Shown here piece by piece: positions 2,753 through 52,248 of a DNA stretch of 64,000 bases. The first letter of the stretch is position 1. Each line of letters starts with the position of its first letter. The DNA is from a phage: the sequence record PZ445436.1. One strand, written 5' to 3'. The notes below the pieces were generated by a model. That model was not told the origin of the DNA. It worked only from the letters and a program-made list of their open reading frames with translations, and ran no database searches. Position numbers and translations under genes: made by a program.

Positions 2753-4077
2753 TTGATTTCCTCTAAATCTTTGGTGTATTCGGTAACTACATCAGTAGTT
2801 TTCCAATATTCATTTTCTTCTTTTTTAGCTTTAGCTTCTTCAGCAAGTTTCTTTGCTTCGTCGGAAGTCATATGAAAAATATTCATTCCAACTAATTTAT
2901 CAACATAAGAAGAATACATCTCAATTTTAGAAAGTTCTTCGGTCAGTTCTTTACGAGTTTTACCCTGTACAACAATTTCACCTGAAATTACTTTCTTAAT
3001 GAAATGCGCCTTGGCAAAGGCTAAACGAAAAGCTGACTCAGTTTCTTTAATTTTGTTATCAATTCGTTTTTGGACATAAGTTTTACGAACTTCGACGAAG
3101 TCTTTGATTAAATCAACTACGTTATCGTAAACTTGCAGTTTTCCTTTCTCATTAATAACCGTAATATTCTGAGAACGACGCTCAATCAACCCAAAGTCTT
3201 TCATAATTTTTGCATGGCGTTCTTCTTCGTTATCGCTCAAAGAATATTCTTTACGGAATTTAACTTTGAAGCCAAAGCCATGCTCACCACAAGCATCATC
3301 CCATGTAATGAAGCCTTTATCTTCAAGTGGGTCTAAGATTTTACTCACATAAGTTTCACGATCATACTTATACGGAATCTCAGTGATATTCATTTGAGTT
3401 CGTGAAGTAAACTTGTACGTTCCACGAATTTCATATTGACCGTCAATCTCAACGACTTCACCACGAAATTCTGGGAATTCTACCTTCGGTTTAGTTACTT
3501 TCTTTCCTTGAATAGCTTGCAGTACAGCTTTCTTGACAGAAGAAACACTATGAGGAAGAATGTAAGTTGCATAACCAGTTGCAATACCGGAAACGCCATT
3601 AAGAAGAACAGTAGGAATAATAGGCAAATAGAAAGCAGGCGGAATGTGTTCTTTATCTTGATGTACCGGAGCATATTCAGTATCTTTATACACGTTATAG
3701 AAATTTTTACTTATACGAGCAAAAATATAACGACTCGCCGCTGCCTTTTGAACGGTACGAGAACCAAAGTTTCCTTGACCATCTAACAGAGGAAAGTTAT
3801 TATTCCAAGTGTTAGCCATCAAAGCTCCCGCATCTTGCGCAGAGTTTTCGCCATGGTGATATCCAAGGTCCGCTACACCACCTGCGATAGAAGCGAGCTT
3901 ATGAAACTTATCTTTATTTCCTCGTGCCAAATCAAGAGCTCGAGCAATAACAAATCGTTGAACTGGCTTAAATCCATCAATCATATTTGGGATAGCACGA
4001 TTTTCAACCGTGTACATAGCATAAGCCAATGCTTCATTATCAATGATACTTTTTAAATCGCGATTATTCAGTTGCAT
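2749..4077 (-). CDS. 52: DNA topoisomerase II medium subunit (gp52)
   Basis: 442 aa as in T4 gp52; GyrA-like cleavage/rejoining region. Confidence 0.88.
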   Translation of the reverse strand: MQLNNRDLKSIIDNEALAYAMYTVENRAIPNMIDGFKPVQRFVIARALDLARGNKDKFHKLASIAGGVADLGYHHGENSAQDAGALMANTWNNNFPLLDGQGNFGSRTVQKAAASRYIFARISKNFYNVYKDTEYAPVHQDKEHIPPAFYLPIIPTVLLNGVSGIATGYATYILPHSVSSVKKAVLQAIQGKKVTKPKVEFPEFRGEVVEIDGQYEIRGTYKFTSRTQMNITEIPYKYDRETYVSKILDPLEDKGFITWDDACGEHGFGFKVKFRKEYSLSDNEEERHAKIMKDFGLIERRSQNITVINEKGKLQVYDNVVDLIKDFVEVRKTYVQKRIDNKIKETESAFRLAFAKAHFIKKVISGEIVVQGKTRKELTEELSKIEMYSSYVDKLVGMNIFHMTSDEAKKLAEEAKAKKEENEYWKTTDVVTEYTKDLEEIK

Positions 4078-49134: not shown

Positions 49135-49605
49135 TTAATCATGTTTCCACACCCCATCGGTATTTGACCAAAGCCGCTGATTATCTGATCCTCTCCACAG
49201 CTTTTTGGTCGGAAGATTTTTCTCATACTTCCCATCAATAATAACATCAACATATTTAAGCATTTCTAGTTGTTTAATATCTTCAAACTTATATCCTGTC
49301 CACAACCAAATGCTTTTATTGGGATAAAGATTTTTTACTGTTTGAACAATGCAATGAATACCATCTCGATTATCAGGATAGAGAGGGTCTCCTCCAGTTA
49401 TAGTTAATCCTTCTATATAATCATTATTCAAACATTCAATTAATTGTTCTAGTGTTTCACCAGTGAATGGAATACCATTTCTAGCATTCCATGTTGATTT
49501 ATTATAACACCCTTCGCATTTATGCAAACAACCTGTAACGAAAAGAACGGTCCTGCATCCAGGGCCATTCACAAAGCAGCACGGGTATATTCTGTCATAA
49601 TTCAT
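49135..49605 (-). CDS. nrdG: Anaerobic ribonucleotide reductase activating protein NrdG (radical SAM)
   Basis: 156 aa as in T4 NrdG; Cys cluster CCFVNGPGC...CLHKCEGC. Confidence 0.85.
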   Translation of the reverse strand: MNYDRIYPCCFVNGPGCRTVLFVTGCLHKCEGCYNKSTWNARNGIPFTGETLEQLIECLNNDYIEGLTITGGDPLYPDNRDGIHCIVQTVKNLYPNKSIWLWTGYKFEDIKQLEMLKYVDVIIDGKYEKNLPTKKLWRGSDNQRLWSNTDGVWKHD

Positions 49606-50434
49606 TTATATATTTCCAATTATAGCCTTCAACACTTTTACGTTCGCCATTTAAACATTTTAAAATATTTCCTTTGCTAGAAATATTAAAATATTTTGCT
49701 GCGTCTGGTATATAATTAAATGTTTTTAAAAGAACACCATCTTTATATGCGCCAAATAAATCAAGAGTATATTTTTCTCGAAGACGCTGATGTTTCCTTT
49801 TCATAACCTCAGGATTTGCATACGCCAACTTCAATGAATTTCTATGTTTTTCTTTTACTTCAGGTTTTTGCATTGCTAACTTAGTTAGCCTGGAAATTTT
49901 ATTTCTAACTTCATCAGTTTTCATTGCATTTGACAAATTTAATAAAGTTTTATTTCTAACTTCAGGTTTTTGCATTGCTAACTTAGTTAGTTCTCTATGT
50001 CTTTTTCTAAAATCGTCATCCTTCCATATATTTTTCGATAATTTTGACATAGAGCGGTGAAATAATTCCTTTTCACTGGAATACAATTTAAAAATTTCAT
50101 CCAATTCATCCGCATTAAATCTATCGGTATTCGAGTTTATCATTCTATGAAAGGCATAACACATTTTACTATTACTTGTTTTAGCTAAATAGTAATGAGC
50201 TAACGCATGGTCATAATATGACAAATTAACAATATTCCATTTATCTGTTTTATATTCAGGAAATATAGATTTGGGAAGCACGTGATGTGCTTCCGTTTTT
50301 CCTTTTATTTTAGGATTATTATAATTTTTTGTTATCAAATCAACATATGACAATAGTAAATCATTATTTTCTTCAAATATTAAAGCTAATTTATCATTCA
50401 CAAAATCGCAAGGATAAAATCTATCATAATTCAT
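49595..50434 (-). mobile_element. HNH homing endonuclease ORF (Mob-like) inserted between nrdD and nrdG
   Basis: 279 aa; HNH region AHHVLPKS...WNIVNLSYYDHALAH; repeated KLAMQKPEV modules; first about 40 nt duplicate the nrdG 5' end. Confidence 0.65.
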
Positions 50435-52248
50435 TGGTGTTTAACCCTATGCATGATTTCTTTATTTTTACCGAGATTAAATCCGCGTTCGTTCGGATTT
50501 CCCAAATAACCACATGTTCTTCTTATTGTGTTCATCTTTTTAGGATCAGTTTCTCCACAAATAGAACAAACAAATCCGTTTTCAGTAGGAGTCATTTCAT
50601 GGGTACTTCCGCATGTAAAACATTTATCTACCGGCATGTTAACACCAAAATAATCTAAATGTTGTGCAGCATAATCCCATACAGCCTCAAGACCTTTTAG
50701 GTTATTTTTCATATCAGGAAGTTCAACATAAGAAATGTGACCACCTGTCGCAATGAAATGATATGGCGCTTCACGAGAAATCTTTTCAAACGGAGTAATA
50801 TTTTCTTCTACTGAAACATGGAAACTGTTAGTGTACCAGCCTTTATCGGTAACATCTTTTACACTTCCATATTTTTCTGTATCAAGTTTACAGAAGCGAT
50901 AACAAAGGTTTTCAGCAGGAGTCGAATATAAACTAAAAGCAAATCCGGTTCTTTCAGTCCACTGTTTAAGATGGGCATTCATTTTAGTTAAAATTTCTTG
51001 TCCAATATCACGACCGACAAGAATATTCAATTCGTGAATACCAATGTATCCTAAAGACACTGAACTTCTACCGTTTTTAAATAACTCAATTATGTCGTCA
51101 TCAGGTTTAAGACGAACCCCAAATGCACCTTCTTGGTAAAGAATAGGAGCAACAGTCGCTTTAACTCCTTTTAAGGAACTAATTCTACACATCAAAGCTT
51201 CAAAACACAAATCCATTCGTTCATTGAACAATTCGATAAATTTCTGTTCATTGAACTGTGTTCCAATATAAGAATCTAATGCGATACGAGGAAGATTCAG
51301 TGTTACAACACCAAGATTATTACGTCCATCAAGAATTTCATTACCAGTCGAATCTTTCCATACGCTCAAGAAACTACGGCAACCCATCGGAGAAACAGGA
51401 ACAGATGAACCAGTGATAGCTTTATTGTTCTTAGCTGAAATAATATCAGGATACATCCTTTTGCTTGCGCACTCTAGAGCAAGCTGTTTAATATCATAGT
51501 TCGGATCGTCTTTATAAAGATTAACACCTTCTTCAACAAACATAACAAGCTTAGGGAAAATAGGAGTTATCCCATCACGACCAAGACCTTTAATACGATT
51601 TTTCAGAATTGCTTTCTGAATCATTCGTTCAGTCCAGTCAGTTCCCGTACCAAATGTAATTGTTACAAAAGGCGTTTGTCCGTTTGAACTAAAGAGAGTA
51701 TTTACTTCATATTCATAAGCTTGGAATGCATCGTATACATCTTTTTCTGTTTTAGATTGAGCATAATTCAGTGCATCGGCGATTTGCCATTTTTCTGCAT
51801 CCTCAATATGTTTTGCATAGGTGCGTTTAACATAAGGAGAAAGTACTTTATCTACATTAGCAAAAGTCGTTCCGCCGTATTGATGGGAAGCAACCTGTGC
51901 AGTAATTTGTGCCATAATTGCAGTAGCAACTCCAATTGATTTAGGAGTTTCAATCTGCGCATTACCAAGCTTAAATCCGTTCTCAAGCATTCCTTTTAAA
52001 TCTACTAAACAACAATTAGTAAATGGAAGAGCAGGGGAATAATCAATATCGTGGAAATGGATAATTCCGCTTTCATGCGCTTTCATAATAAAAGACGGGA
52101 CCATATTTTTGGCAATGTGTTTAGACACAATACCAGCCATAAGGTCCCGTTGAGTTGGAAAAACACGAGAATCTTTATTAGCATTCTCGTTTAAAAGGTC
52201 TTTATTAGTTTTATGAATCAATCCTTCAATTTCTTTTTCAATTGTCAT
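50431..52248 (-). CDS. nrdD: Anaerobic ribonucleotide reductase NrdD, uninterrupted
   Basis: 605 aa continuous ORF; C-terminal glycyl-radical motif (RRTCGYLG) and Zn-ribbon cysteines. Confidence 0.88.
   Translation of the reverse strand: MTIEKEIEGLIHKTNKDLLNENANKDSRVFPTQRDLMAGIVSKHIAKNMVPSFIMKAHESGIIHFHDIDYSPALPFTNCCLVDLKGMLENGFKLGNAQIETPKSIGVATAIMAQITAQVASHQYGGTTFANVDKVLSPYVKRTYAKHIEDAEKWQIADALNYAQSKTEKDVYDAFQAYEYEVNTLFSSNGQTPFVTITFGTGTDWTERMIQKAILKNRIKGLGRDGITPIFPKLVMFVEEGVNLYKDDPNYDIKQLALECASKRMYPDIISAKNNKAITGSSVPVSPMGCRSFLSVWKDSTGNEILDGRNNLGVVTLNLPRIALDSYIGTQFNEQKFIELFNERMDLCFEALMCRISSLKGVKATVAPILYQEGAFGVRLKPDDDIIELFKNGRSSVSLGYIGIHELNILVGRDIGQEILTKMNAHLKQWTERTGFAFSLYSTPAENLCYRFCKLDTEKYGSVKDVTDKGWYTNSFHVSVEENITPFEKISREAPYHFIATGGHISYVELPDMKNNLKGLEAVWDYAAQHLDYFGVNMPVDKCFTCGSTHEMTPTENGFVCSICGETDPKKMNTIRRTCGYLGNPNERGFNLGKNKEIMHRVKHQ

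Follow-up and report, generated by a model that had tools for sequence, protein, structure and literature searches.

A predicted free-standing HNH homing-endonuclease gene, here called HNH-279, was found inside nrdG, the gene of the anaerobic ribonucleotide reductase (RNR) activase, in phage sequence record PZ445436.1, of which a stretch of 64,000 nucleotides (nt), the window, was analysed. The gene sits in nrdG after nt 40: its own first 40 nt are those of the resident nrdG, and the nrdG that follows it begins with a different, replacement 5′ end that travels with the element. This anatomy and this insertion site were observed in two phage genera, between which the element has been transferred; its presence is polymorphic and its protein is under purifying selection. 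It is likely, in our judgement, that the unit is a homing cassette which spreads by cutting insert-free genomes and whose altered nrdG 5′ end protects the genomes that carry it. An earlier, sequence-only reading of the stretch had described an open reading frame (ORF) wedged between nrdD and nrdG; the element instead lies within nrdG, at the boundary between nt 40 and nt 41. The features of the locus are as follows.

The rows are given from upstream to downstream on the minus strand:
50431-52248, minus strand: nrdD, anaerobic RNR large subunit, 605 amino acids (aa) (Pfam NRDD, 1.5e-171; Gly_radical, 1.2e-25)
49595-50434, minus strand: HNH-279, free-standing HNH homing-endonuclease ORF, 279 aa (ORF list, PHROG matches)
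50395-50434, minus strand: R1, nt 1-40 of the resident nrdG (13 codons and 1 nt), which form the start of HNH-279
49566-50394, minus strand: inserted unit, 829 nt, consisting of the endonuclease body from codon 14 and then R2
49566-49605, minus strand: R2, replacement nrdG nt 1-40, now the functional nrdG 5′ end (encoding MNYDRIYPCCFVN)
49576-49594, minus strand: variant patch, nrdG nt 12-30, with 8 substitutions relative to the resident allele
49135-49605, minus strand: nrdG, anaerobic RNR activase, 156 aa (Pfam Fer4_12, 7.2e-48; Radical_SAM, 4.3e-7)

The ATG of HNH-279 and the stop codon of nrdD overlap as ATGA (50431-50434), and the last 11 nt of HNH-279 overlap the start of nrdG (49595-49605); the placement of the ORF and both overlaps had been described in the sequence-only reading and were borne out. 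The window genome is a Tequatrovirus, with Escherichia phage OMNI12 as the closest record (99.1% over 1.8 kilobases, kb). Its nrdD is uninterrupted, without the I-TevII intron, and has a 3′ end of the resident type (...ATCATGCATAGGGTTAAACACCA).

The insert is carried by 21 of the 826 phage records that match the region, and the others align as two pieces that skip exactly 829 nt (a query of 1801 nt against a span of 972 nt). In the insert-free phage QOTSP, nrdD is followed immediately by ATGAATTATGATAGATTTTATCCTTGCGATTTTGTGAATG, joined to GCCC, and this stretch shows 0/40 differences to the first 40 nt of HNH-279. Judged by this comparison, R1 represents the resident nrdG 5′ end, and the copy that heads nrdG, R2 (ATGAATTATGACAGAATATACCCGTGCTGCTTTGTGAATG), is the foreign, recoded and divergent one; it had been proposed the other way round, with the first codons of the endonuclease as the diverged copy. 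A repeat search returned the pair as a direct repeat of 41 nt (49566-49606 and 50395-50435) with 80% identity and a spacing of 829 nt, and the match of 33/41 was higher than in any of 100 shuffled versions of the region (at best 30/41). The duplication of about 40 nt of the nrdG start that had been claimed is therefore real, but the two copies are not near-identical: they differ at 8 of 40 coding bases, which are confined to nt 12-30, and the N-terminal peptides read MNYDRFYPCDFVN in HNH-279 and MNYDRIYPCCFVN in nrdG.

At about 85% DNA identity, the HNH-279 gene was also found in ten Klebsiella Jiaodavirus records, and the insertion boundary falls between nrdG nt 40 and 41 in both genera. The nrdG of insert-free Jiaodavirus starts with MNFDRIYPSDFVNG. 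In insert-bearing Jiaodavirus these resident 40 nt open the endonuclease (the Tequatrovirus equivalent of this genus-specific start in R1 is MNYDRFYPCDFVNG), and the nrdG behind it starts with MNYDRIYPCCFVNG, as in the window. R2 encodes the same peptide in both genera; 6/40 nt differ between them, all synonymous, and this divergence of 15% is on par with that of the endonuclease body. Since R1 follows the host genus and R2 follows the element, the mobile unit is the endonuclease body together with the replacement nrdG 5′ end (829 nt). A transposon-like target-site duplication was ruled out, as R1 conforms to the resident allele in each genus and R2 to the element. The homing footprint suggested from the sequence was thus half right: the duplication is tied to the insertion, being seen in an alignment of the junction with relatives only where the insert is present, but it was not made by copying the target site at insertion, as R2 arrives with the element.

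The substitutions of the variant patch lie at nrdG nt 12, 16, 18, 21, 24, 28, 29 and 30, and the resulting amino-acid changes include TTT to ATA (F6I) and, through a change of all three bases, GAT to TGC (D10C). Between the window and QOTSP, nrdG differs at 8/40 positions in nt 1-40 versus 6/431 in nt 41-471 (Fisher p = 2.8e-6), and between the Jiaodaviruses UTI-K1 and TNG87 at 11/40 versus 5/431 (Fisher p = 1.3e-9). R2 was present in 8/8 sampled insert-bearing Tequatroviruses and in 2/2 Jiaodaviruses; over both genera, the variant allele was found in 10/10 sampled insert-bearing genomes versus 0/14 blindly sampled insert-free ones (p = 5e-7), and Asp10 was kept in 27/27 nrdG genes sampled from insert-free members of several T4-like genera. 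Searched with a degenerate pattern for the Cys-Cys nrdG allele, IMG/VR gave 0 matches, where the Asp control pattern matched 17 contigs, and a metagenome scan with the Cys-Cys pattern gave a single match, located behind segH, a GIY-YIG gene that is the third occupant of this slot (T6, RB3; 71 records in all). A native lineage with a Cys-Cys nrdG thus found no support in IMG/VR or in the metagenome scan.

Among eight insert-bearing Tequatroviruses, the mean pairwise divergence of the body (1.68%) was below that of the adjacent nrdD (3.88%) and of nrdG (3.61%); the insert is younger than its flanks. Between the genera, the synonymous divergence (dS) of the endonuclease was 0.86 versus 1.85 for nrdG, and the element therefore crossed genera after their split. 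A ratio of nonsynonymous to synonymous divergence (dN/dS) of 0.085 was obtained for the endonuclease between genera, which amounts to strong purifying selection, so that the protein is maintained by selection. It is highly improbable that HNH-279 is instead a long-standing gene of vertical descent, perhaps domesticated, that has often been lost and is not now mobile, with the duplication as an ancient tandem that later diverged. The same dN/dS would be compatible with a host-beneficial function, and the overlaps with nrdD and nrdG are operon-like, but such a gene should not have a body that, within Tequatrovirus, shows half the divergence of its flanks, nor half of the dS of nrdG between genera; it occurs in about 3-4% of the records of a Tequatrovirus-dominated search, with 10 Jiaodavirus records, and one ancient duplication followed by divergence cannot yield an R1 that exactly tracks the resident allele of each genus. 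In phages PST and 235Ecol030PP, HNH-279 occurs together with the group I intron of nrdD and its I-TevII, whereas the window has HNH-279 without the intron; as the two are not always together, these neighbouring mobile elements assort independently.

Within the HNH-279 protein, three regions were delimited:
50183-50302, minus strand: HNH catalytic core, residues 45-84 (GKTEAHHVLPKSIFPEY...WNIVNLSYYDHALAHYYLA)
49766-50071, minus strand: six tandem 17-residue helical modules, NUMOD3-like, residues 122-223
49619-49735, minus strand: predicted C-terminal NUMOD1/I-HmuI-like helix-turn-helix DNA-binding domain, residues 234-272

The HNH motif noticed in the sequence-only reading was recovered: the signature residues H50, H51, N67, H76 and H80 are present and invariant in an alignment with 9 relatives, and the protein matched PHROG 655 ‘homing endonuclease’ (5.3e-37) and PHROG 12434 ‘HNH endonuclease’ (7.1e-15). 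An AlphaFold2 (AF2) domain model (predicted local distance difference test, pLDDT, 89.6) gave strands at residues 47-51 and 68-72 and a helix at 73-84, in strand-strand-helix order and with a pLDDT of 92-95 in the core. By BLASTP, the protein shares 23/60 identities (38%) with T4 MobC over the HNH core (E = 2e-7), and the MobC segment so aligned passes Pfam PF01844 (27.6 bits versus a cut-off of 21.4). The core is a divergent ‘SIFPE...WN’ variant which the Pfam HNH models miss, and relatives of HNH-279 reach them at sub-threshold values (E 0.0025-0.01). No relative turned up among PDB chains by sequence or profile search, and an NCBIfam search gave no meaningful match. The protein is accordingly assigned to the HNH class on its motif and on transitive sequence evidence, not on its fold.

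The repeated KLAMQKPEV modules, also noticed before, correspond to TKLAMQKPEV at residues 149-158 and 183-192, encoded by a 42-nt DNA repeat (49847-49888 and 49949-49990); they are part of the six 17-residue units, which AF2 modelled as helices from residues 122-136 through 208-221, and relatives match Pfam NUMOD3 above threshold. In a 242-aa variant of the protein (P0002) exactly one repeat module is missing. The C-terminus of the window ORF matched PF22083 (2.4e-4) and PF07453 (4.5e-3) below the Pfam threshold, and relatives reach 1.9e-7 and 6.2e-7, respectively. An exhaustive profile search at E ≤ 1e-10 collected a family of 3,561 cluster representatives with the architecture HNH, NUMOD3 and NUMOD1; matches to the family profile begin after about position 8-23, i.e. 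past the first 13 residues, and relatives of the endonuclease at other loci lack these captured residues.

The 13 captured codons mislead the annotation of both the endonuclease and nrdG. In UTI-K1 (3003-3839) the endonuclease is annotated as ‘ribonucleotide reductase activating protein’; HNH-279 as a paralogue of nrdG was ruled out, the likeness being confined to 13 residues. In Mexia (2508-2900) and in RB3, nrdG is annotated with a late internal start. A true paralogue of HNH-279 is present in T2, T6 and many Tequatroviruses, between a DUF5487 gene and gene 46 (T6, NC_054907.1, 1870-2724); it has 36% aa identity and about 75% nt identity over the HNH core, is set off by a normal intergenic gap and lacks a captured N-terminus. 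No second copy of HNH-279 was found within the window, and a search of IMG/VR for the endonuclease returned just insert-free nrdG starts, which served as insert-free controls, and one weak match to the repeat region.

By insertion, the resident nrdG 5′ end is shifted upstream, where it provides the endonuclease with its start codon and its first 13 codons; the endonuclease takes over the ATGA overlap of nrdG with nrdD, and nrdG is rebuilt from the replacement 5′ end, so that its start codon opens the last 11 nt of the endonuclease ORF. In the mechanism of spread that we propose, during mixed infection the enzyme would cut or nick insert-free genomes in or near the nrdG 5′ region, and the break would be repaired from an insert-bearing genome, whereby the endonuclease body and R2 would be copied in. 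For this repair, the left homology arm would consist of the nrdD 3′ end and R1, and the right arm of nrdG from nt 41; because repair would use these arms, R1 would be homogenised to each recipient and R2 always co-inherited. As the cassette restores a contiguous nrdG, insertion alone would not destroy a target within nrdG, which would leave the patch of 8 changed nt as the only available difference in cis. The patch (nt 12-30, with Asp10 to Cys) would shield carriers from re-cleavage, and it would also lower the R1/R2 recombination that would delete the gene. Nuclease activity, the position of the target, the immunity role of the patch and a translational coupling of nrdG to the endonuclease are inferred.

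Several observations weigh against this proposal. The HNH-279 ORF of the window matched no Pfam HNH model at E ≤ 1, and three fold searches returned helical-repeat noise only. In BF15 the HNH gene has a 1-nt insertion with a frameshift and a truncated annotated coding sequence, so that not every copy is active. The variant patch was also found behind segH in T6, RB3, F26, G3F7 and PD112 (5/6 sampled carriers), and as segH is unrelated, the patch could have hitch-hiked as a tract of common descent and not determine immunity; TH58 combines segH with the resident nrdG allele, and the patch is therefore not required by segH. SegH and Hef reportedly cut their own genomes too, which speaks against an obligatory self-immunity. 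For T4 mobC, a 2010 review of T4 mobile elements gives the activity as not determined and the target as unknown (PMC2988022). The idea that R2 is private to the HNH-279 cassette was dropped when the identical patch was found behind segH.

It is possible, though we rate it clearly below the proposed mechanism, that the anatomy is as described and the patch has no function, being a co-conversion remnant of the original donor's flank that recombination cannot remove, as no more than 30 nt separate it from the insert; the enzyme may then cut carriers and non-carriers alike, or cut elsewhere, for example in the nrdG interior or in nrdD. The segH genomes with the identical patch, TH58 and the reported self-cleavage by SegH and Hef are in line with this, and so is T4 mobC with its foreign tract of about 0.8 kb (86% identity), by which hitch-hiking tracts do occur at the slot. 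A functionless remnant is harder to reconcile with a three-base change of the otherwise invariant Asp10 to Cys that is kept in both genera, with between-genus differences in R2 that are synonymous in all six cases, and with the lack of a visible donor lineage in IMG/VR and the metagenome scan; moreover, the tract ends ≤10 nt from the insertion point in two genera, which is tighter than usual random whittling.

R2 of T6 and R2 of the window agree at all 8 diagnostic positions, and segH is about 3 times commoner than HNH-279 in Tequatrovirus (71 versus 21 records), as would be expected if segH came first, the variant nrdG 5′ end originating together with segH or on its account, and the HNH-279 cassette was assembled later in a genome of the variant type or joined one by recombination; R2 would then inform on SegH more than on HNH-279. 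We regard this order of events as doubtful. No segH was present among the Jiaodavirus matches, yet the variant there has diverged about as much as the HNH gene, and the patch therefore more likely belongs to HNH-279 and reached segH-bearing genomes by recombination. In the insert-free phages U5, ESh24 and ERS-1, a resident-type nrdD end is followed directly by R2, a state expected as the product of R1/R2 recombination in the shared first 11 nt (ATGAATTATGA) or of patch-only repair. As their nrdD 3′ end is not recoded in the segH manner, they resemble derivatives of HNH-279 carriers, and this too argues against segH as the origin.

In T6 (AY262137.2, 1460-1560), the last nine nrdD codons beside segH are heavily recoded, with KEMVKRVKHA before the stop versus KEIMHRVKHQ in the resident type. 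SegH itself starts with ATGCATAGG, the 9-10 nt which in the resident nrdD specify Met-His-Arg, but read in a shifted register; the segH start may be a capture of nrdD codons akin to the nrdG capture. Besides BF15 and the P0002 variant, other carriers show signs of decay at the slot: PD112 has just an internally deleted segH remnant, and nrdG is annotated in two pieces behind segH in G3F7. In RB3 (798-1532), segH is annotated as segD.

The gene is a new member of the known phage HNH homing endonucleases, and its way of occupying a coding sequence is a variation on a known type of mobile element. Free-standing homing endonuclease genes are usually intergenic; unlike introns and inteins, they cannot splice out of genes. 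The element represents a third solution in a phage, namely to insert into the coding sequence, keep the host start codon and supply a spare host-gene 5′ end. nrdG serves an essential pathway, and a selfish gene sits inside its first 40 bases and uses its start codon. The resident insert-free, HNH-279, segH and insert-free variant states of the junction, with T4 mobC as a fifth, constitute a natural experiment on endonuclease targeting, resistance and loss. With the candidate target narrowed to about 40 bp and the candidate resistance changes to 8 bases, the T-even ‘mob’ endonucleases become directly approachable. A wider picture, which we hold to be unlikely, is that the T-even nrdD/nrdG junction is contested: at least three unrelated genes (T4 MobC, SegH, HNH-279) would compete for one conserved target at the nrdG 5′ end, the Asp10-to-Cys 5′ end would be a transferable resistance allele created by one element and adopted by another, its lone survival in U5-type phages would be a scar that blocks re-invasion, and the coupling of NrdG to endonuclease translation would, by lowering NrdG when that translation is lost, be a retention (‘addiction’) device.

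Some further observations were made on the region. A scan for sigma-70 promoters showed no enrichment (8 found versus 11 expected). A perfect inverted repeat of 8-9 bp (GGAAGCAC...GTGCTTCC) lies at 50274-50294, exactly over the codons of the catalytic EAHHVLP motif, with a T-run behind it on the antisense strand; no other terminator-like match came up in the region (1 found versus 0.5 expected), and the repeat is probably due to chance. Internal hairpins in mobE have been reported to limit mobE expression. In some T4-like contigs of IMG/VR, an ORF of 177-187 aa (MIQLKLDT...LFPEAKG) was seen upstream of nrdG; in others it is shrunk to 20 aa, counted after its first Met, with the same N- and C-terminal ends joined at the repeated LFPE motif, an apparent repeat-mediated internal deletion.

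Among known phage systems, T4 mobC comes nearest in design: HNH-279 shares with it the slot, the ATGA overlap with the nrdD stop and the 11-nt overlap with nrdG. T4 MobC opens with nrdG codons 1-7 (MNYDRIY), insert-free phages matching exactly 21 nt into mobC, and nrdG restarts inside the last codons (WKYKDEL versus WKYINEL before the stop). The two differ in that T4 MobC has 210 aa versus 279 aa and no NUMOD3-like repeat array, that T4 captures 21 nt versus 40 nt and keeps Asp10, and that about 0.8 kb of diverged downstream DNA was brought in with mobC versus 40 nt here. Between T4 (NC_000866, 40000-47000) and insert-free Tequatrovirus, identity is 96-98% in nrdD and 96.5% from nrdH onward, whereas T4 from nrdG nt 1 through 55.8 (about 0.8 kb) is about 86% identical to insert-free Tequatrovirus and similarly close to the nrdG of Klebsiella Jiaodavirus. 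The upstream edge of this tract is exactly mobC, and T4 mobC thus seems to have come in together with a long stretch of foreign DNA downstream of it. HNH-279 as an orthologue of T4 MobC was ruled out, as the identities are confined to the HNH core and there is no DNA cross-match; the gene is nevertheless labelled ‘mobC’ in Yersinia phage PST, and its relatives ‘mobC’ or ‘homing endonuclease’. The nrdG duplication is not mentioned in the 2010 review (PMC2988022), and no publication describing such an nrdG capture at the mobC slot was found in the literature covered, outside of which lies Sandegren et al. 2005.

SegH resembles HNH-279 in its slot, in its presence/absence polymorphism and in the variant nrdG 5′ end of most sampled carriers. 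It differs in being a GIY-YIG protein whose gene ends at the nrdG ATG (TTATGA) and has no nrdG 5′ duplication, the adjoining nrdD 3′ end being recoded instead. The activity of SegH was reportedly shown experimentally, and segH replaces mobC in T6, RB3 and others. With phage HNH endonucleases of the I-HmuI type, HNH-279 has in common the N-terminal HNH core, NUMOD3-type repeats and a C-terminal NUMOD1/I-HmuI-like helix-turn-helix; I-HmuI is intron-encoded and HNH-279 free-standing, without a detectable sequence match to a solved structure.

In fungal mitochondria, mobile ORFs have been described (Allomyces macrogynus atp6; Glomus atp6, atp9, cox2 and nad3) in which an endonuclease ORF carries a foreign terminus of the host gene (PMC3630166); of the systems in the literature covered, they come closest to the present case. 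These ORFs insert in frame, the displaced native terminus stays adjacent and matches insert-free relatives, and the inserted part is divergent (PMC3630166). The likeness extends to both copies at the phage locus: R1 is native, displaced and retained (0/40 differences), and R2 is divergent (8/40) and accompanies the ORF in both genera. The nucleases are LAGLIDADG or GIY-YIG proteins of an organelle there and an HNH protein of a phage here. In the fungal cases the 3′ (C-terminal) end of the host gene is replaced and the native end is left as an unused downstream remnant. The phage locus mirrors this at the 5′ end, where the native piece that the element displaces is put to work as the start of the endonuclease itself.

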